Assembly: GCA_963699585.1 (NCBI GenBank)
Contig: CAVOUK010000011.1
Coordinates: 125,231 to 189,230 of the forward strand
Reading direction: 5' to 3'
Length of the DNA stretch: 64,000 bases
Origin: Thermodesulfovibrionia bacterium
Lineage (GTDB): Bacteria; Nitrospirota; Thermodesulfovibrionia; UBA6902
This document shows positions 41,658 to 60,207 of the stretch, in pieces (positions within the stretch are counted from its first letter, which is position 1; every line of letters begins with the position of its first letter). The notes under the pieces are model-generated. The model ran no database searches, was not told the origin of the DNA, and saw only the letters and a program-made list of their open reading frames with translations. The position numbers were made by a program, and so were the translations under genes.

Positions 41658-42435
41658 AAATTTCCTTTAATGTCATGGCCCCTTCACAGGGTTTAATATT
41701 GTCAATCAGGACAGGGACCATCTGCAGGTATTTAATAAGTTCTTTTACCTCTCCGCCGGTAATGAAAAAGGCCCTGCCTCCATACGGGATGCCTCTTTTT
41801 TTAATGTGCGGAAGCCTGATATATCCAAAAGCACGTGATGCAATATATCCTGTTGTATAATTAGGGTCATCAGATATGCATAATTCCCCAAGGACCATCG
41901 GGTATTTATGGACCTTGCTTGCCAGGACAAGGGCCTCTTTTACAGTATCATTATTGATGCCGAGTTTATTTAATTGTCTTGAAAGGGCTGCATCTGCTTT
42001 TTTTGTTATGCCCATGCGTGTCACCCTCACACCGCGCAAAAGGTCAGGCTCAAGCCTTACCCCTTCAATATCCATAAGCATGGCGCCTCTCATTGTAATA
42101 CCGATTGTAAGGGATTTAAATGCCTCATCTATTGCCCTTTCAGTTATGCCGATATGTGAGAGAATTTTAAAGACGGCTTTCTGTACCGCCTCAGGATTAC
42201 CTGTTTTCAAAGTACAAACCGGGAGAGAAGAAATTTTACGGGGCTTCTCTTTAAGCTCCTCTATTGTAAGGCGTATTTCATCCGCCCTTCCCTTCTCATG
42301 TGTAAGGGCCCTTCCGGTATATTCTTTAACAATATCTATAATATCGTCCTTTTCATATATACCTTCGGCGCCGGATGAATGAACACCATTTTGGGCCGCC
42401 CTCATTCTTACGCTGTAATGCAAATATTTTGACAT
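41617..42435 (-). CDS. bioW: 6-carboxyhexanoate--CoA ligase (pimeloyl-CoA synthetase)
   Basis: 272 aa; matches BioW blocks 'YSVRMRA', 'ALVLASKV', 'ELCISDDPNYTTGYIA', 'RAFFI'; immediately downstream of bioB. Confidence 0.7.
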   Translation of the reverse strand: MSKYLHYSVRMRAAQNGVHSSGAEGIYEKDDIIDIVKEYTGRALTHEKGRADEIRLTIEELKEKPRKISSLPVCTLKTGNPEAVQKAVFKILSHIGITERAIDEAFKSLTIGITMRGAMLMDIEGVRLEPDLLRGVRVTRMGITKKADAALSRQLNKLGINNDTVKEALVLASKVHKYPMVLGELCISDDPNYTTGYIASRAFGYIRLPHIKKRGIPYGGRAFFITGGEVKELIKYLQMVPVLIDNIKPCEGAMTLKEIFERKSHRKSLSRK

Positions 42436-43406
42436 TATATTTCTAACCCCATGTCATTGATCATCTGTAAGTCTTCTTCAGGTCTTTTACCCTGCGTCGT
42501 GAGGTAATTTCCGATCAGCAGCCCGTCAGCGCCCGCAAAAAATATATAGGAATTCAGCTCCCTTAGAGTCTGAGGCCTGCCGCCGCAAACCCTTATCTCG
42601 GAGCCGGGGAGTATAAGCCTGTAGACCGCTATTATTTTCAGCGCTTCCAACGGACTTAATAATTTCGAATCTCCCAACGGTGTTCCGTTTACGGGTGTTA
42701 AAAAATTTATCGGCACAGATTCAATGTTCAATTCTTTAATTGCAAATGCCATATCAATACGGTCTTCCCATGTTTCACCGAGTCCGAAGATACCGCCGCT
42801 GCATACTGAAAGTCCCAGCGATTTTGCAGCCTCAATGGTCTTTATCTTTTCCCGGTACGTATGAGTTGTGCATATTTCACTGAAAAAAGCCTCTGATGTT
42901 TCGAGGTTATGATGATATCTGTAAAGCCCCGCATCTTTTAATTGAGCAAGCTGCTCTTTTTCAAGCATTCCAAGGGTGGCGCATGGCAGAAACCCAAGGT
43001 CCCTGATCTCAGAAATAAATGTGCATATATCTTTCAATTCCGGATCTGAAGGCTTCATCCCGCTTGTAACAATGCAGAATCGCCTGGCCCCGTGTTTTTT
43101 TGCAGAATTTGCTGCATCCAGGATTTTCTCTTTATCGAGCAAAGGATGTATATTTACAGATGTTTTACTATGTGCAGATTGCGCACAAAAAGAGCAATCC
43201 TCAGGGCATGTGCCTGATTTAGCATTGATAATTGAGCACAGATCAACCTTATTGCCTCTGAATTTTTCCCTTACCCTGTTTGATAAGGTGAAAAGCTCAT
43301 AAATTTCAGCGCCTTTTCTCTCTGACATTTGAAGGGCAGTCTGCCTGTCGATTCCCTGAACATTATGCATAGCTGTCTTATGTGTTTTTTCCTCTGTAAT
43401 TAGCAT
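42435..43406 (-). CDS. bioB: biotin synthase (radical SAM)
   Basis: 323 aa; 'CPEDCSFCAQS' radical-SAM cysteine motif and BioB C-terminal region. Confidence 0.9.
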   Translation of the reverse strand: MLITEEKTHKTAMHNVQGIDRQTALQMSERKGAEIYELFTLSNRVREKFRGNKVDLCSIINAKSGTCPEDCSFCAQSAHSKTSVNIHPLLDKEKILDAANSAKKHGARRFCIVTSGMKPSDPELKDICTFISEIRDLGFLPCATLGMLEKEQLAQLKDAGLYRYHHNLETSEAFFSEICTTHTYREKIKTIEAAKSLGLSVCSGGIFGLGETWEDRIDMAFAIKELNIESVPINFLTPVNGTPLGDSKLLSPLEALKIIAVYRLILPGSEIRVCGGRPQTLRELNSYIFFAGADGLLIGNYLTTQGKRPEEDLQMINDMGLEI

Positions 43407-43699
43407 GTGCTATTATCTACATGAAAATAGGAAGTTGTCAATAAGTAGTATTATTCTGAAAAATGATAAAGCGCTAACGGAGAGTAATGATGTCATTAAG
43501 ATTAAGATATGCGATTATAAGACGTATTATCAATATGCATTACCAAGCCGAGGTTATTAAAGTAATCATGTTATGTCAGGATCTATTCAACTTTATTTTG
43601 TTCCGATGGATGCGTGTTACTTTGATACATTCTGTTCTCACAGTTATGTTGAAGCGGTACACAATCCACTGTCCTGTATTAATCGTTATTTAACCTGAT

Positions 43700-45290
43700 T
43701 GTCATCAATCCACAGAAACATTCTCATGTCAATAACTGCACACGGTCAGGTTTTGCAGTATTAACTCATCCCTGAGAGATAAAGAGATGCTTGAATGAAC
43801 CGGTGGCAAATAAGTTGCGGCTCATGATTAGTTACTATGTGAATGAAATTTAGGTCCGCGATCCTTATGCAATAGGCGGATTACTTAACGATGTTACTCT
43901 AAATCGGTTTACAGTTCGGATGCAGTCTGTATCATCACATCGATGCAATTGTTATGCTACTGCGTCCTGCAGGATGGCTTTAGAAAAAGACTGCCGTCGG
44001 CACCAGGGTAACAACTGAGGTATCATCACAGTCTGTAAGTTTGGACAGTGAATCCGACCTGAAGATCTATGGAATCAGAAGGCTACAAACTAGGCCTTTA
44101 GGAGCTGATCACCGACTAATCTCATGTACTCGTGTTTTGAGCAGATAACTAACGTAGCTATGCGACAATCAACTCCACTCCGTAATTGGCTCAATATCAA
44201 CCCGTTGCTCCATCCAGAATTCAGCACACTACCATGAACCCGATCAACGTGATTATAACGTTTGTTCAGGGTTCACTTTTTAAATAGCGACAGATCATTA
44301 ACACCGTCTCCAGAATGTTGGCGAACAGTATCGAACGTCTGACAATCTGCCTGCTAGATCATGACACTTGTATAGTCAGTACTGATGCTGCAGTTGAGAC
44401 CATCATAGCAGAAATGACTCCACTGCACCGGGAGTGATAGCTCAAACCGTTGCATAGAGGCTGCTTCTGGCCGTTTGAACTCGAGGCACGACCCAGTCAA
44501 TACCTTAACCGTCACCGGTCAATGACGTTTATACGACCAACTCTTAGAATTTAGATTAAGGCCACGATGTAACGCTACTACCTGAAGCATCAAATATCTC
44601 GGTCACTTTCACCGGACTCACCCCTTATCCAGTTCTATGCCTGTAAGTGCGATTAACATCCATGTGGTTCAGTAGTTACCCTGCTTTCAAGATAAATCCA
44701 CTATCATCGTGACACTGTTATCCAGATGTCACCAAGTGACAAACTTCACTAACGCAAGCCAATCGATCTCGTAAGTGCTGATATAACATGTGTAGCTTCA
44801 ATGGGTACCCTGCTTCGGATATCCATAAGTCATTAGCGCCGTCTGACAGATCAATGTCAGACAAAAGTTCGTATGCAAACGGTGCAATAATAAAGTAACT
44901 ATTTAGCAAAAGTGACAATTATGTAATCACTGTTTTAGCATATTCAATCCTCCAGTATGAATCGTAAGATTAATGAGCATATTGACACCATATCAACCAG
45001 GACATTGATAGCATACAATTGATTGTAACTACAATGAGACTTCTATCTAGAGGATTCTGAGCTCTGAAGCTCGAAATAGGTCAATTATCTGACATTCTAC
45101 TAAGGCAGATGCGTCTTATCTTAATGCTTATAGGACTTTAAACAGTATTTATCGATATCTCCACTCTTATATAACAGAGTGCCTACTGTCAATAATATGA
45201 TCAGTATGTCAAACTCGGTTATTTCAACTGGGAATTCACAGACAACTTATCCATATTTACTAAGATCCGATCAGTTTATGTTATAATTTT
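43700..45290. other. ~1.6 kb ORF-free, random-like region (unexplained)
   Basis: No ORF >66 aa in any frame between bioB and the flavin reductase gene; frequent stops in all frames. No repeats, RBS-led ORFs or obvious long-range pairing seen by eye. Confidence 0.5.
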
Positions 45291-45328
45291 ATGATAGGTT
45301 GACTCTATCCTGCGAACGGAGTCAAGAA

Positions 45329-45790
45329 ATGAACGATTTTGAAAAGGCATTTGGAAAGATCCAAAACGGTGTTTTTGTTGTAACTACAAAACATGGAGAT
45401 AAAGCCAATGGAATGACTGCGGTATGGGTGGCACGGGCGTCCTTTAAGCCGCCCATGCTGTCCGTTGCCATTGGTAAAACACGGTATAGTCATGAGCTGA
45501 TAAAAGAAAGCGGCGTCTTTGCAGTGAATATTCTTTCTGAAAAACAGATAGCACAGGGAAAACTTTTCGGTTTCAGATCCGGTAGGATAACCGACAAATT
45601 AAAAGATTTTGAATATACAACAGGCAAAACAGGTTCTCCAATACTTAAAGATATTTCAGGGTATCTTGACTGCAAGGTTGTCAAAACATGCAATGCAGGA
45701 GACCATACCATCTTTGTAGGTGAAGTCCTTGATGCCGGATCTTATAATAACAACCATCCGCTTCTATACAGACATGATGATTTCTTTTAA
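45329..45790 (+). CDS. flavin reductase-like FMN-binding protein
   Basis: Start MNDFEKAF...; split-barrel flavin reductase-like pattern 'GVFVVTTKHGDKANGMTAVWV'. Confidence 0.7.
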   Translation: MNDFEKAFGKIQNGVFVVTTKHGDKANGMTAVWVARASFKPPMLSVAIGKTRYSHELIKESGVFAVNILSEKQIAQGKLFGFRSGRITDKLKDFEYTTGKTGSPILKDISGYLDCKVVKTCNAGDHTIFVGEVLDAGSYNNNHPLLYRHDDFF

Positions 45791-45800
45791 GGGAGGTCTT

Positions 45801-46316
45801 ATGAAAACCATAAGTTCAAAAATAATACTTGTTGTGTTATCTGCTGTCATCCTATCATGTGCTCCGGGAAGATATTTGAGAACAGAAGTGGCCGCGCCTT
45901 CCGAGATTACGGGAAACTATATTTTAATGCTTTATGGGGGCCGATACAGCGATGACATAGAAAATGTAGCAATTCTTGATAAAGAGGGAGATCCGTATAC
46001 CTTTGAGATATTTGCACGTCCGGATAATTATACAGTACATGTAAATGTCCCTGCAAAAGAAGTCCTCGATGAAGCACAAAAGTTTGTCCGCACCCACAGG
46101 TCTTTCCTGAGATCAAAACTCAGCAGGATTATTGGTCCCAATGGGAATGTTATAGGATATGAATTGCGTCCGTTATATCAAATGCTCGAATTTGGTTCTT
46201 CTGATGTCCTTTCAATAAATTACAGGATTAAGGACAGTAAGGTTATCGTCGATATACGGCCAGGCCAGGAAGTTGAACACAACGAACCATTTTTATTCAG
46301 AAGAATGAATAAGTAA
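45801..46316 (+). CDS. hypothetical lipoprotein
   Basis: RBS GGGAGG before ATG; signal peptide with 'ILSC' lipobox. Confidence 0.5.
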   Translation: MKTISSKIILVVLSAVILSCAPGRYLRTEVAAPSEITGNYILMLYGGRYSDDIENVAILDKEGDPYTFEIFARPDNYTVHVNVPAKEVLDEAQKFVRTHRSFLRSKLSRIIGPNGNVIGYELRPLYQMLEFGSSDVLSINYRIKDSKVIVDIRPGQEVEHNEPFLFRRMNK

Positions 46317-46328
46317 TAAAAGATCCCC

Positions 46329-47636
46329 ATGCCTGTCACAATTTCTTTTCATGGCGGAGTTGAAACCGTTACCGGTTCATGTCATCTTGCTGAATGCGGA
46401 GGGGATCAATATCCTTGTCGACTGCGGTCTTTTCCAGGGATGACCTCACGGACTGAAGAAAAGAATTTTGATGATTTCGGGTTTGATCCTTCATCTTTAG
46501 ATTATCTTCTGCTCACACATGGGCATCTCGACCATTGCGGCAGGATTCCGTTACTTGTGAAAAAAGGCTTTAAAGGCAAGATCGTTTGTACTTCAGCTAC
46601 ATATGATATCGCAAAAATTATCCTCCTTGACACTGCCAGAATACAGGAAGAAGATTTTGAACACTGGAAAAAGATAAAACGCCGTACCGGAGATTTACAG
46701 CGTGACCCGCTTTATACAACCCTTGAGGCCCTTGACTCCCTGCGATATTTTAATCCTGTAGACGGATATGACAAACCTGTTAACTTAAGCGGAAACATAA
46801 CGGCAAATTTCAGAGACGCGGGACATATCTTCGGCTCTGCATTTATAGAGGTCGATATCAAAGGGTATGGCAGGGTCATATTTTCGGGCGACCTCGGCAA
46901 CAGGAACAAGCCTATAATCAAAGACCCTTCATTTCCGGACAAGGCGGATTTTTTAGTAATTGAAGGCACCTATTCAAACAGAAATCACAAGAACATCGAT
47001 GAATCCGTTCAGGAACTTAAGCAGGCGATCATTGATACCTTTAGAAAAGGCGGCAATCTGCTGGTCCCTGCTTTCGCCATAGAAAGGGCCCAGGATATAC
47101 TCTATTATTTAAGAGAATTCCAGGAGAAGGGAGAGATCCCCTCCTGCAATGTCTTTCTTGATTCACCAATGGCGCTCAATGTTGCTGAAATCATGCGGAG
47201 AAATCCGGGGTATTTTGACCAGGAGACCGCAAAACTCTTTCAGGAGAAAAAAGACCCGTTTTCCTTCCCGGGCCTGAAGCTGATCAGGACCCAGGAGGAA
47301 TCCAGGCAGATCAATTTCATCAAGAGCCGCGCTATCATCATTGCCGGGTCAGGCATGTGCACAGGGGGAAGAATAAAGCATCATCTCAAGCACAACATCT
47401 GGAGAAAAGAATCTTCGATCGTTTTTGTGGGATACCAGGCTGAAGGGACCCTCGGAAGAGAGATAGTTGACGGTGAAAGAACAGTGAAGATCTTTGAAGA
47501 TAGATTCAAAGTAAATGCACAGGTTTATACAATCGGGGGCTTTTCAGCCCACGCTGACAGGGACACCCTTATAGATTGGTTAGAGCATATCAATGGATTG
47601 GAACAGACTTTTCTTGGTGCATGGAGAAAGAGATAG
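46329..47636 (+). CDS. MBL-fold beta-CASP RNA-metabolising hydrolase (RNase J-like), with a compensating +1/-1 pair near 46390-46450
   Basis: 'LLTHGHLDHCGRIP' motif; the expected 'GGINILVDCGLFQG' is encoded in the alternate frame between two G-runs (gggg/ggg). Confidence 0.7.
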   Translation: MPVTISFHGGVETVTGSCHLAECGGDQYPCRLRSFPGMTSRTEEKNFDDFGFDPSSLDYLLLTHGHLDHCGRIPLLVKKGFKGKIVCTSATYDIAKIILLDTARIQEEDFEHWKKIKRRTGDLQRDPLYTTLEALDSLRYFNPVDGYDKPVNLSGNITANFRDAGHIFGSAFIEVDIKGYGRVIFSGDLGNRNKPIIKDPSFPDKADFLVIEGTYSNRNHKNIDESVQELKQAIIDTFRKGGNLLVPAFAIERAQDILYYLREFQEKGEIPSCNVFLDSPMALNVAEIMRRNPGYFDQETAKLFQEKKDPFSFPGLKLIRTQEESRQINFIKSRAIIIAGSGMCTGGRIKHHLKHNIWRKESSIVFVGYQAEGTLGREIVDGERTVKIFEDRFKVNAQVYTIGGFSAHADRDTLIDWLEHINGLEQTFLGAWRKR

Positions 47637-47733
47637 TCTGCTTTCATTTCAGAAAGTGCTGCTTGAAAGAAAAATATCTGATATAGGTACGCATCCCCCG
47701 TCTGCATGAATCTTTTTTATTACAGGGTAGCCA

Positions 47734-48306
47734 ATGAAACTGAAAATAGGAGTTATGGGAAGTGCAAGTTCCAAGGTGTCCAAAAAATATATGGACATTG
47801 CCTACAAGCTGGGCCGAGCCATAGCAAAGAATGATTGCATAACTGTAACAGGCGCATGTCCCGGCCTCCCGCTTGCTGCCGCCAACGGAGCAAAAGATGA
47901 AGGCGGACTAGTAGTTGGCATCTCCCCTGCCCTCAGTATCCTGGAACACAGGAATAAATATCACTCACCAACCGAGCACCACGATGTTCTGATATTTACA
48001 GGCAGCGGATTGATGGGAAGAGAGGTGGTAAACATACGCTCATCGGACATAGTGATTGTCATTGGAGGCAGGTCAGGAACGCTGGGAGAATTTTCTATTG
48101 CCTATGACGAGGGGAAACTTATCGGAGCGCTCCTTGGCACAAACGGCATCACTTCGGAGATCAGCAATCTTGTTAAACTCATCAGGAAAAAAACCGGTTC
48201 TAAAATAATCTACGATAACGACCCTGATAAACTCGTAAATGCGCTCTTGCAATATTACGCAAAAAAACATTACAAACGGCCTTCCTGCTTTCATGTTGAA
48301 GAATAA
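47734..48306 (+). CDS. LOG-family / TIGR00725 protein
   Basis: 190 aa; 'IGVMGSAS', 'VVIGGRSGTLGE' Rossmann-like LOG motifs. Confidence 0.65.
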   Translation: MKLKIGVMGSASSKVSKKYMDIAYKLGRAIAKNDCITVTGACPGLPLAAANGAKDEGGLVVGISPALSILEHRNKYHSPTEHHDVLIFTGSGLMGREVVNIRSSDIVIVIGGRSGTLGEFSIAYDEGKLIGALLGTNGITSEISNLVKLIRKKTGSKIIYDNDPDKLVNALLQYYAKKHYKRPSCFHVEE

Positions 48307-48356: not shown

Positions 48357-49815
48357 CTAACCTCTGGTCAGGATCTCCAGCTTTTTGATGATCGCTCCGG
48401 GCTCAGCAGCAACCTTTTGGGGACGAATGGTTTTAATATCTATTCCTTCCAGATTCTTTACGGAAGGACATTGCGGTATGGGAATATCAGGATAGTTTCT
48501 TCTGAAAATCAGGAAACTTCGCAGGCGATGCGGTCTCAAGGACCACGATAATTGAATTATCACCGCTGAAATACTGCCGGTATCTGAAGGACGCCGCCAC
48601 TCCTATCACTCCATGGGGTTCGAGAACAATATTGTTTCTCCGCCAGAATCTTACGATATGGGCCTCGATGTCCTCGTTAGTGATGATGTCCTCAACAAAA
48701 ACATCTTTACGGAGGCGCTTCGCCACCGCCGGGGTAATGCTTCTTTTTCCTGAAAGGATATCAGGTATGTTTTCCGGAACTTCTCCGTATAAAAAGAGGA
48801 TACGTTCAAGGTTGGAGGGTACGGAGATATCCATGGAATTCGCAAGCGTATACTTATTGCTGAGACTGCCGGAGGAGGAGCCTTTGCCTACAATGTTCGC
48901 AAATATGTTATTGGCGTTTGTACCCGCAATAAATACCTGGACAGGAAGCCCCATTCGCTTTGCTATCAAACCTGCGGTCAGATTGCCCAGATTTCCTGAC
49001 GGCACTGAAAATATAATATTCTGGTCCGGGAACTTCTTTTTAAGTTCCTTCCAGATATAGAAGTAATAAACGGTCTGCGGCAGAAGCCTCCAGACGGAGA
49101 TGGAATTGGCCGATGTGAGATTAAAACGTTCACGCACGTTGTTATCATTAAGCAGGCCCTTGGCTAATCGCTGGCAGTCGTCAAAATTTCCATCCACCGG
49201 GACCGCAAGGACATTTCCCGTTATGGAGAGCATCTGTTTTTCCTGGACTTCGGAAACCCTGTCAGCAGGATAGAGGACCAGGACATTCGTATTGGGCAAA
49301 CCGTAAAAGGCTGTTTGTATAGCAGTGCCGGTATCCCCTGATGTGGCGACGATAATGGTAGAGTGTCTCTTTTTAACCGAGAGATAGTGACTTATCAGTC
49401 TTGCCAGAAACCGTGCGGCAAAATCCTTAAAACTGCACGACGGCCCCCTGTCTAAACGGGCAATTACAAGCCTGTTGTCATCTATGGCTTCCTCAACCGG
49501 TATATGTATATCACTGTATGCACCGTCACAAATGTCCGCAAGGACATTATCCGGGATATCGTCCTGGGGAAGAAAGCCTCTCATTATCACCCATGCCAAT
49601 TCACTGTAAGAAAGACCTGATAAATCATTAATTGCCGCCTCGTTAAAACAGGGCAGGCCCGCGGGCATAAAAAGCCCGTAATCGGATGCAAGCCCCCTAT
49701 CGAGAACAAAACCCCATTTATAGCGGTTCTTCCCTTCCGGGTCCCGGGTAGAGACGAACATGTGCTCGCCTGCAGAACAGGCCGGCAATAATTGTTTCAG
49801 TTTATTAATATCCAT
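48357..49815 (-). CDS. thrC: threonine synthase (long form), C-terminal +1 frameshift near 48490
   Basis: ORF 48487-49815 has the PLP 'SFKD' lysine motif. The C-terminal ~40 aa ('YPDIPIPQCPSVKNLEGIDIKTI...') continue in ORF 48357-48563 after deleting one A of 'aaa'. Confidence 0.8.
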
Positions 49816-50172: not shown

Positions 50173-51064
50173 CTATGACCTATTACCCATTTGCGGGCTG
50201 ACCAGCTTGCAAGCCTGCAAGCTTCCCGCTAACTCAAGTGTCACCCACTTATTATCGAAAGACTTCTCATTCAGGTCAAGTCCTGCCTTCCGGTAAGCAT
50301 CAGCTACCATATCCTCTTCTCCTGCAAGTATACCTGAAAGGACAACGATACCATCCGCGCTCAGATGAGATACAACTTCAGGGACGATCTCAATTAACGT
50401 ACTCGAAATAAGATTTGCGATGATGACGTCAAACGTTCCTTCAACAACAGAGATGCCGCCTTCTTTTACCTCAATATTTCCTGTCCTGTTAAGCGTGATG
50501 TTTTCCCTCGCGGCATTAACAGCGATCGGGTCGGTATCAACTGCAACAATGTGTGAAAACCCCATCTTCGAGGCCCCGATCGCGAGAATTCCCGTACCGG
50601 TGCCGATGTCAAGAAGGCTCTTTCCGGCATGCGCCGGCGGTAAGTTTTTCTATGCGTGCAAGACAGGTCCTTGTGGTTTCGTGATGGCCTGTTCCAAAGG
50701 CCATTCCTGAATCGATCATGATAGTGATACGCCCTTCTTCGGCCTGCTCCCACGGAGGAATAATTGTGACGGCATTACCGGCATTGATAGGTGTAATGCC
50801 TTTTTTCCAGACCTCATTCCAGTCCTGCGCCGGGAGCATTGTATGCGTAAAGGAAAAAGAAGGATCAAGACCGGAAGATTCCAATACCCCCCTGAACGAA
50901 TTAAGCTCGTCGCAGAGGAGCTCGATATTGTTTGTATGTTCAAAATATGCGCGAAGCGTTTCACCATTTTCATACAGTCCGAGAGAACCCAGCTCTTTCA
51001 GTTTGTATGTAAGCGCATCCAGCGATACATCCGGCACAGTGATGATAAATTCGTAATATTCCAT
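50173..51064 (-). CDS. prmA: ribosomal protein L11 methyltransferase, +1 frameshift near 50575-50600; 3' end extended by a dispersed repeat
   Basis: N-part 50609-51064 ('GTGHHETT') and C-part 50173-50565 join via 'PAHAGKSLLDIGTGTGILAIGASKMGF' in the alternate frame (extra A in 'gaaaaa'). The last ~18 codons are encoded by the aagcctgcaagc/ggtaatagg repeats. Confidence 0.8.
50192..50232. repeat. ~40 bp dispersed repeat (GCGGGCTGACCAGCTTGCAAGCCTGCAAGCTTCCCGCT), copy at prmA 3' end
   Basis: Related copy at 51131-51172, so prmA is bracketed by direct copies; shorter relatives at 29676-29689 and 54145-54160. Confidence 0.6.
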
Positions 51065-51130: not shown

Positions 51131-51172
51131 TTTCCCGCCTGTCCAGCTTGCACGCTTTCAAGCTTTCCCGCT
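51131..51172. repeat. ~40 bp dispersed repeat, copy upstream of prmA
   Basis: 'CCGCCTGTCCAGCTTGCACGCTTTCAAGCTTTCCCGCT' aligns with 50192-50232 with a few mismatches. Confidence 0.55.
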
Positions 51173-58865: not shown

Positions 58866-59262
58866 TTACGTATTCCCGATCTGCCATGCGGGTCGTGGCA
58901 GGTTGTGCATTCCGCTCACTGCGGTCTCTCTGGATTCTCCGACGATGGGGAGCTTATCCTTGTCACCCGAAACGTAAAAACGCTTCCCCTCCATAGTAAT
59001 GTTGTGATTTATCGTTTTAGGGTTAAATTCCAGAGGCGAGGACTTGATCGGATGGTGTGCCATTTCAGCAACATCATGACAGGATTTGCAGAGTTCCGAC
59101 TGATCAGGAATTACAAGCGCAGCGGATTTGGAATCAGGTTCGGATGACAGATGGCAGAAATCGCATTTACTGCTCAGGCCAGCTATGAACTTCATCGAAG
59201 GTCACGCCATGAGCGTTTAAAGCAAATGAGAGAAACAACGATAATATAAAAAACAAGCTCAT
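58866..59262 (-). CDS. periplasmic dihaem c-type cytochrome; signal peptide in a different frame (frameshift ~59195-59205)
   Basis: ORF 58866-59195 has two CxxCH motifs (CDFCH, CKSCH). Upstream ATG 59262 encodes 'MSLFFILSLFLSFALNAHG' but is +1 out of frame. Confidence 0.55.
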
Positions 59263-59339
59263 ATGAATAAATAATTTTGCCACAAAACTTCCTTATTCAT
59301 AACAAGTAGGTAATAAAATTATATCACATGTTAAGCGTT

Positions 59340-59760
59340 ATAGGAGGTCCTCGATGTATTTGAGAATTACGGCTTTGACCCGCGAATACGCTTGCCACTT
59401 ATTGGACCACCCAACAATGCACTGATCAGGCACAAATCGAACGCTCCGGCCACCAGCGGCACAAGCCCGACAATGATGAACTGAATAATAATACATTATG
59501 CTATTCTAAATGGTCCTTCATGTGGCCATCAAGACTTTGATCCTGATAAACAATGCAGTGCGAGTCCCATTCCAGTGGCTAGCTGTGTGTACCCCCAGCC
59601 GATTAGACCAATGCCAGCAACTATCCGTGTAATTCGACCGGCTGGACTATTAACGAATCGAGGCAAAACCTGAACGACCAAACGACTCAGCGATGCTAAG
59701 TAATGAAAAATATTAACAAATAAAAATCCATGACACCAGCGTTACATAATAGTATCCATG
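59340..59760. other. ~0.4 kb ORF-free, random-like segment
   Basis: Same impression as 43700-45290: no ORFs, balanced composition, no repeats; flanked by AT-rich stretches. Confidence 0.35.
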
Positions 59761-59815
59761 AACAGAAGAACTTTTTATGAAAGAGATTGATTCATCGGGT
59801 CTTCTCTTTTTCTAA

Positions 59816-60085
59816 GTGAATAATTGTATCTATCTTGGTACTCCTGCTCTTCAATCTTTCAGGTTAAAGATCAGGCTAAATGATTTAGAAGAATTACTTG
59901 AATTTATCTATCAGAAAACAGATAAAGAAAAAACAACTGGAAAATTGCTCCTTTCAGTAGATGAAATACCTGATTTGATTGAGACAATAAATAGATTAAT
60001 TGAAGAAAAAAAATCAAAGGTGAAATTTAATTTTTCAAGTGATGAATTAAAAGAAATAGTAGATTTTATAAATATAAAGCAATGA
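59816..60085 (+). CDS. hypothetical AT-rich orphan ORF (89 aa)
   Basis: Local GC visibly below the window average; Lys/Glu/Ile-rich product; no family recognised. Confidence 0.35.
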   Translation: MNNCIYLGTPALQSFRLKIRLNDLEELLEFIYQKTDKEKTTGKLLLSVDEIPDLIETINRLIEEKKSKVKFNFSSDELKEIVDFINIKQ

Positions 60086-60207
60086 TTAGGGTTTGGCCTT
60101 TCCGAACACCTTATGCCTATTCTCTCAAATCATTTCAATTCTAACTTTCAGGAAACAATAAACATCTCAGGGGTCTTTTAATTTAAAAAGATAACGGCAA
60201 GATCATT

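Follow-up and report, generated by a model that had tools for sequence, protein, structure and literature searches.

The bioB-flavin reductase interval

The window, that is, the whole stretch of 64,000 nucleotides that was analysed, contains the gene bioB (42435-43406, minus strand) and, divergently oriented to it, a flavin reductase gene, the true start of which is the ATG at position 45329 on the plus strand. The longest ORF in the central portion of the intergenic span (43700-45290) comprises 66 amino acids (44718-44918, minus strand), which is the limit given in the original prediction, and the longest one of the entire 1.9-kb span, 43407-45328, comprises 68 amino acids (43487-43693). Over 1877 nt (43410-45286), no stop-to-stop frame of at least 90 codons is open. 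This gap ranks first in the window, the runner-up measuring 1006 nt, and its length is exceptional also in a wider context, with 1124 nt as the biggest comparable ORF gap in 964 kb from 80 related bioB loci. Stop codons occur 31 to 48 times per approximately 530 codons in the six frames, while the base composition (A.30, C.22, G.19, T.29) predicts 31; a density close to that of random sequence had been noticed correctly. When the gap was tested for a 3-base periodicity, none was found. The description as random-like thus holds for the stop density, but not in the strict sense: pure random sequence is rejected by the significant k-mer structure found in G-tests on di- and trinucleotides (p = 0.003 and 0.0002, resp.). 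The second-largest ORF-free gap of the window (59202-60207, core 59282-59754) is k-mer atypical, too. Its minus-strand translation yields a weak match of the YgaP-like transmembrane type that is interrupted by stops and falls short of the Pfam cut-off (E 6e-4), and it may be another small gene remnant.

Comparison of the k-mers with those of the rest of the window reveals an atypical signature of the gap. The odds ratios are 0.85 for AA/TT (versus 1.17 elsewhere in the window), 0.81 for CC/GG (versus 1.12), 0.93 for TA (versus 0.72), and 1.04 for AC/GT (versus 0.73), and the dinucleotide delta* amounts to 178, compared to a maximum of 125 among the other 1.5-kb chunks. A Markov model trained on the remaining window fits the gap worse than a model of independent bases, the top anomalous segment by Markov scoring being 43822-45307; the genome signature is retained in the other intergenic regions of the window. 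These properties, together with an odd shortage of mononucleotide runs, would be compatible with a non-native or artificially altered stretch, such as a contaminant, a vector, or DNA mutated in silico. However, blastn against plasmid and phage collections returned no match, and the comparison with sister strains given below renders a foreign origin very unlikely.

A functional non-coding element located between the divergent operons and transcribed, be it a regulatory spacer or a large structured RNA, would agree with a length that is unusual among bacterial non-coding DNA, with folding z-scores of -2.4 to -2.8 in a small number of 150-nt minus-strand windows, and with a promoter-like site at 43908-43935 on the plus strand. 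The covariance models of Rfam, however, detect no known RNA in the gap: a search of the window at gathering score gave no match and no tRNA, and a search of 43300-45400 at E<=10 gave three chance-level matches only. When 150-nt windows are folded, the z-scores average about 0 for the plus and about -0.7 for the minus strand, which is indistinguishable from the background of the window (-0.46, sd 1.48, from 36 other places), and a terminator-like site was sought in the gap without success. With OLE, GOLLD, ROOL, and HEARO RNAs and with ORF-less group II introns the gap shares size and lack of ORFs, but neither a covariance-model match nor excess fold stability nor conservation as an RNA. Moreover, the sole homologues of the sequence are protein-coding, and it is absent or replaced in close strains. 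A large non-coding RNA, as had been envisaged, is therefore highly improbable, slightly more so than foreign DNA.

Searches of the gap for direct, inverted, and tandem repeats revealed neither tandem nor CRISPR-like arrays and only short two-copy repeats at chance level, and a motif search likewise yielded chance-level pairs only; the initial impression that repeats, tRNA-like folds, and CRISPR periodicity are missing is borne out. The remnant of an insertion sequence or MITE was considered and rejected, with terminal inverted repeats lacking at the borders and six-frame searches being empty. The six-frame translation of the gap matched no Pfam family, and a concatenated six-frame query against 5.8 billion proteins retrieved nothing at E<=10. 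The latter searches would have remained empty because the gene family concerned is rare and the remaining pieces are too short.

A strain-variable slot between two promoters

BioB places the window in the Nitrospirota, where it is Thermodesulfovibrionia-like, with the best representative genome being 74% identical. Among the 80 bioB loci of the representative-genome set (<=74% identity), only the approximately 40-nt bioB promoter is conserved in the gap, and no remnant of any of the upstream genes of these distant relatives was found there. When the flavin reductase was used to scan metagenomes, the best matches reached 76% identity and were not syntenic.

The conserved bioB promoter (43407-43453, minus strand; scan score 11/12) is kept across 10 relatives. 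It consists of a -35 box TTGACA (43441-43436), a spacer of 18 nt, and a -10 box GATAAT (43417-43412). Since the ATG of bioB at 43406 lies 5 nt past the -10 box and a Shine-Dalgarno sequence is lacking, the arrangement suggests a leaderless bioB mRNA. The promoter motif at 43404-43445 (TTATTGACAAC ... GATAAT) is conserved across Nitrospirota relatives, and the conserved spacer between its two boxes could contain an operator. With a strong promoter directly upstream of the gene, bioB requires only about 40 nt of the gap.

Closer relatives became accessible through the BioB protein. A protein search retrieved the protein of the window at 100% identity within a 90% cluster of 14 members, and the contigs of the cluster members served as sister loci. 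In their flanks, 92-97% of the nucleotides are identical to those of the window, and L117 comes closest with 95.4% and 97.3%. The gene order SLOG, beta-CASP, flavin reductase, slot, bioB, bioW, DAGK is common to L117, L118, and L121; L120 and L119 lack at least one of those genes but agree in their order. In a comparison of the window with L117, short GCTTG/CAAGC-like tracts at 50198-50232 and 51134-51142 differ in copy number, which looks like simple-repeat length variation.

These strains differ in the DNA that separates the two divergent promoters, that of bioB and that of the flavin reductase gene; this space is a strain-variable slot. In L117, it accommodates an intact gene for a secreted MopE/CARDB protein of 524 amino acids, and in L120, a 420-amino acid version of that gene on a frameshift-prone assembly, in which no flavin reductase gene was called. 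The slot of L118 contains four genes, namely, those for a rhodanese, a trypsin-PDZ protease, and two more; L119 has a MazE/PIN pair, and L116 (1-9500) carries VapBC together with a type III CRISPR-Cas system with a CARF/Card1 effector. In L121, the slot is empty of genes, and the distance from the flavin reductase gene to bioB is 384 nt. Toward bioB, the flank homology with the sister strains stops at 43445-43471, and toward the flavin reductase gene it stops exactly at 45268, where the conserved upstream region and ribosome-binding site of the latter gene (45268-45328, plus strand; 88-93% identity to L117 and L118) form the right edge; the bioB promoter forms the left one. With its fixed borders at two conserved promoters and unrelated cargo across strains of one species-level group, the slot resembles a strain-variable islet or integration hot spot, from which it differs in that no integrase, tRNA attachment site, or direct or inverted repeats were seen when its borders were inspected. 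Exchange of the cargo probably proceeds via homologous recombination in the flanks.

As this synteny shows, the flavin reductase gene adjoins bioB in several strains, which answers a question raised in the original prediction. An assembly chimera, joining two unrelated regions via junk sequence, would accord with the more distant relatives, whose bioB genes (50-74% identical) are not accompanied by a flavin reductase gene. Close strains, however, have the same neighbours on both sides of the slot, and bioB of four more distant relatives is directly flanked by a homologue of the gene that follows the flavin reductase gene, so that the likelihood of a chimera is next to nil. The gene in question (45789-46316) has no Pfam or NCBIfam match; its homologues in L024, L044, L051, and L057 immediately precede bioB and are read in the same direction, which hints at a function related to biotin.

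Probable remnant of a secreted-protein gene

The gap of the window contains a disrupted copy of the gene that is intact in L117. Blastn aligns 44732-43814 with L117 8276-9288 (E 2e-57; 69% identity in 1045 columns, including 158 gap columns), and in a MAFFT alignment the two sequences are collinear on the minus strand of the window from the ribosome-binding site through the start codon to approximately position 43677. The remnant (43677-44947, minus strand) thus measures about 1271 nt, compared to 1575 nt of the intact gene. Its retained ribosome-binding site, GGAGGA (44953-44948), aligns with the GGAGGA located 5' of the start codon in L117, while the ATG itself is replaced in the window by TTG (44947-44945), immediately followed by a 1-nt deletion. 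Tblastn recovers amino-acid islands on the minus strand at 44891-44808, 44815-44750, 44582-44487, 44338-44276, 44039-44016, 43993-43874, and 43850-43824. They stand in order, with shifting frames and internal stops, as exemplified by SGDGVNDLSLFKK, DGANDLWISEAG, LTDCDDTS, and VTSLSNPP, and further by IIAPFAYELLSDIDLSDGANDLWISEAG, TFDT-VRQHSGDGVNDLSLFKK, and RVTSLSNPP. The position of the remnant matches that of the intact gene, which lies in the flavin reductase-bioB slot of L117 and in the corresponding slot of L120. Of the origins initially proposed for the gap, it is therefore the old pseudogene graveyard that is essentially borne out, in the form of a frameshift-riddled copy of a 524-amino acid gene of which sister strains carry an intact version at this locus. 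A decayed gene detected by homology had been named in the original prediction as a refutation, and its recovery speaks against the RNA idea.

Homology and synteny with a sister-strain gene also bear on the question of foreign DNA. Derived changes are held in common with L121, and transitions lie above the 1:2 ratio of uniform random substitution. In addition, the intact cassette of L117 is itself atypical in composition, with odds ratios of 0.95 for both TA and AC/GT versus 0.72 and 0.73 elsewhere in the window. The suspicion of non-native sequence was justified insofar as the slot carries strain-variable cargo of atypical composition; homology and synteny with sister strains speak against a contaminant or an altered stretch.

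On either side of the remnant lies further non-coding DNA. The segment 43454-43676, to which no strand was assigned, is a diverged copy of a bioB-upstream intergenic segment recognized by multiple alignment in L121, L123, L119, and L116; blastn of 43683-43300 against L121 4672-5027 gives 79% identity with 30 gap positions. Its dinucleotide signature is similar to that of the core of the gene remnant. The boundary formerly placed at about 43700 accordingly lies near a real junction at approximately 43677, and the dinucleotide signature is equally odd on both sides. At the other end lies the segment 44954-45267, again without strand, for which blastn and tblastx against all fetched loci gave no match. 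By its composition and run statistics, it is likewise short of mononucleotide runs, and it presumably once served the dead gene as its 5' region.

The intact protein of L117 has a signal peptide, two repeats of about 145 amino acids, a Cys-rich MopE metal-binding motif (Pfam score 30.5 bits), and a CARDB domain (33.2 bits). Only four full-length homologues of it exist among 5.8 billion proteins, and they share 72-77% protein identity. Within the gene, L117 and L120 differ by 14-17% of their nucleotides, with a slight excess at third positions, compared to about 5% in the flanks. Judged from these sequences, the MopE/CARDB gene is rare, fast-evolving, and deeply allelic. Because the homologues are so few and so divergent, deep divergence of alleles explains much of the nucleotide difference of 31-37% between the remnant and the intact genes.

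The remnant also shows traits of known bacterial pseudogenes. Mismatches in the MAFFT alignment are evenly spread over the three codon positions (0.39, 0.36, and 0.37), the ratio of transitions to transversions is 0.87, and some stop codons derive from substitutions (e.g., GAA to TAA). A deletional bias in bacterial pseudogenes was reportedly described by Kuo and Ochman in 2010. The remnant contains 42 deletion runs versus 9 insertion runs, an excess in the same direction as the deletional bias of bacterial pseudogenes (Danneels et al. 2018, PMC6054270). Homology and synteny with an intact gene in close relatives, loss of the start codon, numerous frameshifts and stops, deletions far outnumbering insertions, and evenness over codon positions are all in line with a bacterial pseudogene. 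The difference lies in the extent of the damage; pseudogenes of free-living bacteria are usually purged fast, whereas this remnant is far more decayed than is typical.

Evidence on the decay also comes from L121, a short-named JGI contig that was assembled separately and holds approximately 100 nt of the same remnant. Compared with L117 and L120, a 16-nt deletion, a 7-nt deletion, and 17 substitutions are common to L121 and the window. These shared derived changes place at least part of the decay, as a real event, in the common ancestor with L121, which itself would represent a later stage of a pseudogene, with almost everything deleted. The strains thus suggest a series from intact (L117, L120) via decayed (window) to nearly deleted (L121).

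Real decay and possible consensus error

Some features of the remnant go beyond what neutral decay predicts. Runs of at least four identical bases occur at 5.6 per kb in the gap; L117, L120, and the remaining window have about 20 per kb, and even mononucleotide shuffles of the gap segment contain about 13.6 per kb. The ratio of observed to expected homodinucleotides in the gap is 0.86, a value reached by none of the context-free decay simulations, of which 1000 were started from the L117 gene for each of four levels of substitution. Under gap-friendly scoring, identity at aligned pairs rises to 86%, but approximately 180 indel events (about 131 deletions and 50 insertions) are then required in the remnant, far over the one indel per roughly 10 substitutions that mutation-rate data lead one to expect (PMC6054270). 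In the window's copy of the bioB-upstream segment, seven small insertions are present, while four relatives have none among themselves. Both the indel load and the shortage of runs exceed the prediction for a neutrally decaying pseudogene, and the damage may be partly technical.

Irregularities are also found in the neighbouring genes, where single-base insertions exclusive to the window occur in the conserved beta-CASP and thrC genes, in sequence on which five other strains mutually agree. In the beta-CASP/metallo-beta-lactamase gene (46329-47751), they are located near 46388, 46440-46444, 47608, and 47685. Those at 46440-46444 amount to net +3 and garble about 20 codons around a conserved VDCG motif; the ORF is shortened to 435 amino acids, compared to 467 in five sister strains, and a patch of substitutions unique to the window is present at about 47570-47700. 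This disruption would be either real early pseudogenisation or an assembly error. In the threonine synthase gene thrC (48487-49815, minus strand), the insertion is found near 48499, 9-12 nt before the stop codon, and changes the last few codons. The left flank of the gap is almost free of indels, with 2 in 9.6 kb. Taken together, the run shortage, the indel excess, and the window-only insertions in neighbour genes suggest that consensus errors inflate the apparent decay.

Carried to its full extent, this argument would mean that the organism possesses a more or less intact, truly divergent allele, and that the reading frame was destroyed in the consensus only. At a locus where reads of co-existing strains carry different cargo, a possibly long-read assembly could not have been polished properly, by which small indels would have been added and mononucleotide runs shortened. 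A run shortage beyond context-free decay and an excess of 1-nt indels relative both to L117 and to the intergenic segment of the L121 family speak for this, as do the frameshifting insertions in beta-CASP and the one near the end of thrC. The degraded stretch is, furthermore, bounded exactly where the strains diverge, that is, at branch points of an assembly graph, and one JGI sample contains two strain types; the bare "contig_N" names of several related contigs may be taken in the same sense. Homopolymer indels are named as a known weakness of nanopore consensus sequences in a passage of PMC9262707. On the other hand, specific deletions and substitutions of the window recur in the separately assembled L121, stop codons have arisen by substitution, and the mismatch of 13-19% at aligned pairs is well above the per-base nanopore read error, which a passage of PMC13087279 puts at 1-2%. 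The near absence of indels from the left flank also counts against an artefact, and the errors in the neighbour genes are insertions outside long runs instead of the expected deletions within runs. An artefact overlying an intact gene is, on balance, unlikely, though it is the most serious competitor of a dead gene. Considerably less credit is given to the possibility that the extra damage is real throughout. It would require a lineage-specific mutation process that shortens runs and produces 1-nt indels almost as often as substitutions. Such a process would show only in unconstrained DNA such as this remnant and would now be starting to affect neighbour genes such as beta-CASP as well.

Summarizing, the gap is best explained, with reasonable though far from complete confidence, as a pseudogene remnant in a strain-variable slot. 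A gene for a secreted MopE/CARDB protein would have occupied the slot that separates the bioB promoter from the divergent one of the flavin reductase gene. In the lineage of the window, the start codon of a divergent allele of this gene would have been lost first, and the allele would then have been eroded by substitutions, in-frame stops, and numerous small deletions until no frame remained open. The lineage of L121 would have lost more, with only about 100 nt of the remnant left. The remnant and the non-coding DNA flanking it would accordingly be dead DNA without present function. As such, the gap is an already known kind of thing, either an ordinary pseudogene or, in part, an artefact of the sequencing consensus, and no new RNA or element.

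The biological weight of the finding is slight, a candidate large non-coding RNA being replaced by the routine explanation of a dead allele. The frameshifted conserved neighbour genes flag possible problems of consensus quality in the assembly. Searches of representative genomes, Rfam, and Pfam and the six-frame protein search all missed the remnant, which was revealed by the sister contigs; an ORF-free, random-looking stretch in a MAG should therefore be compared first with the contigs of sister strains.
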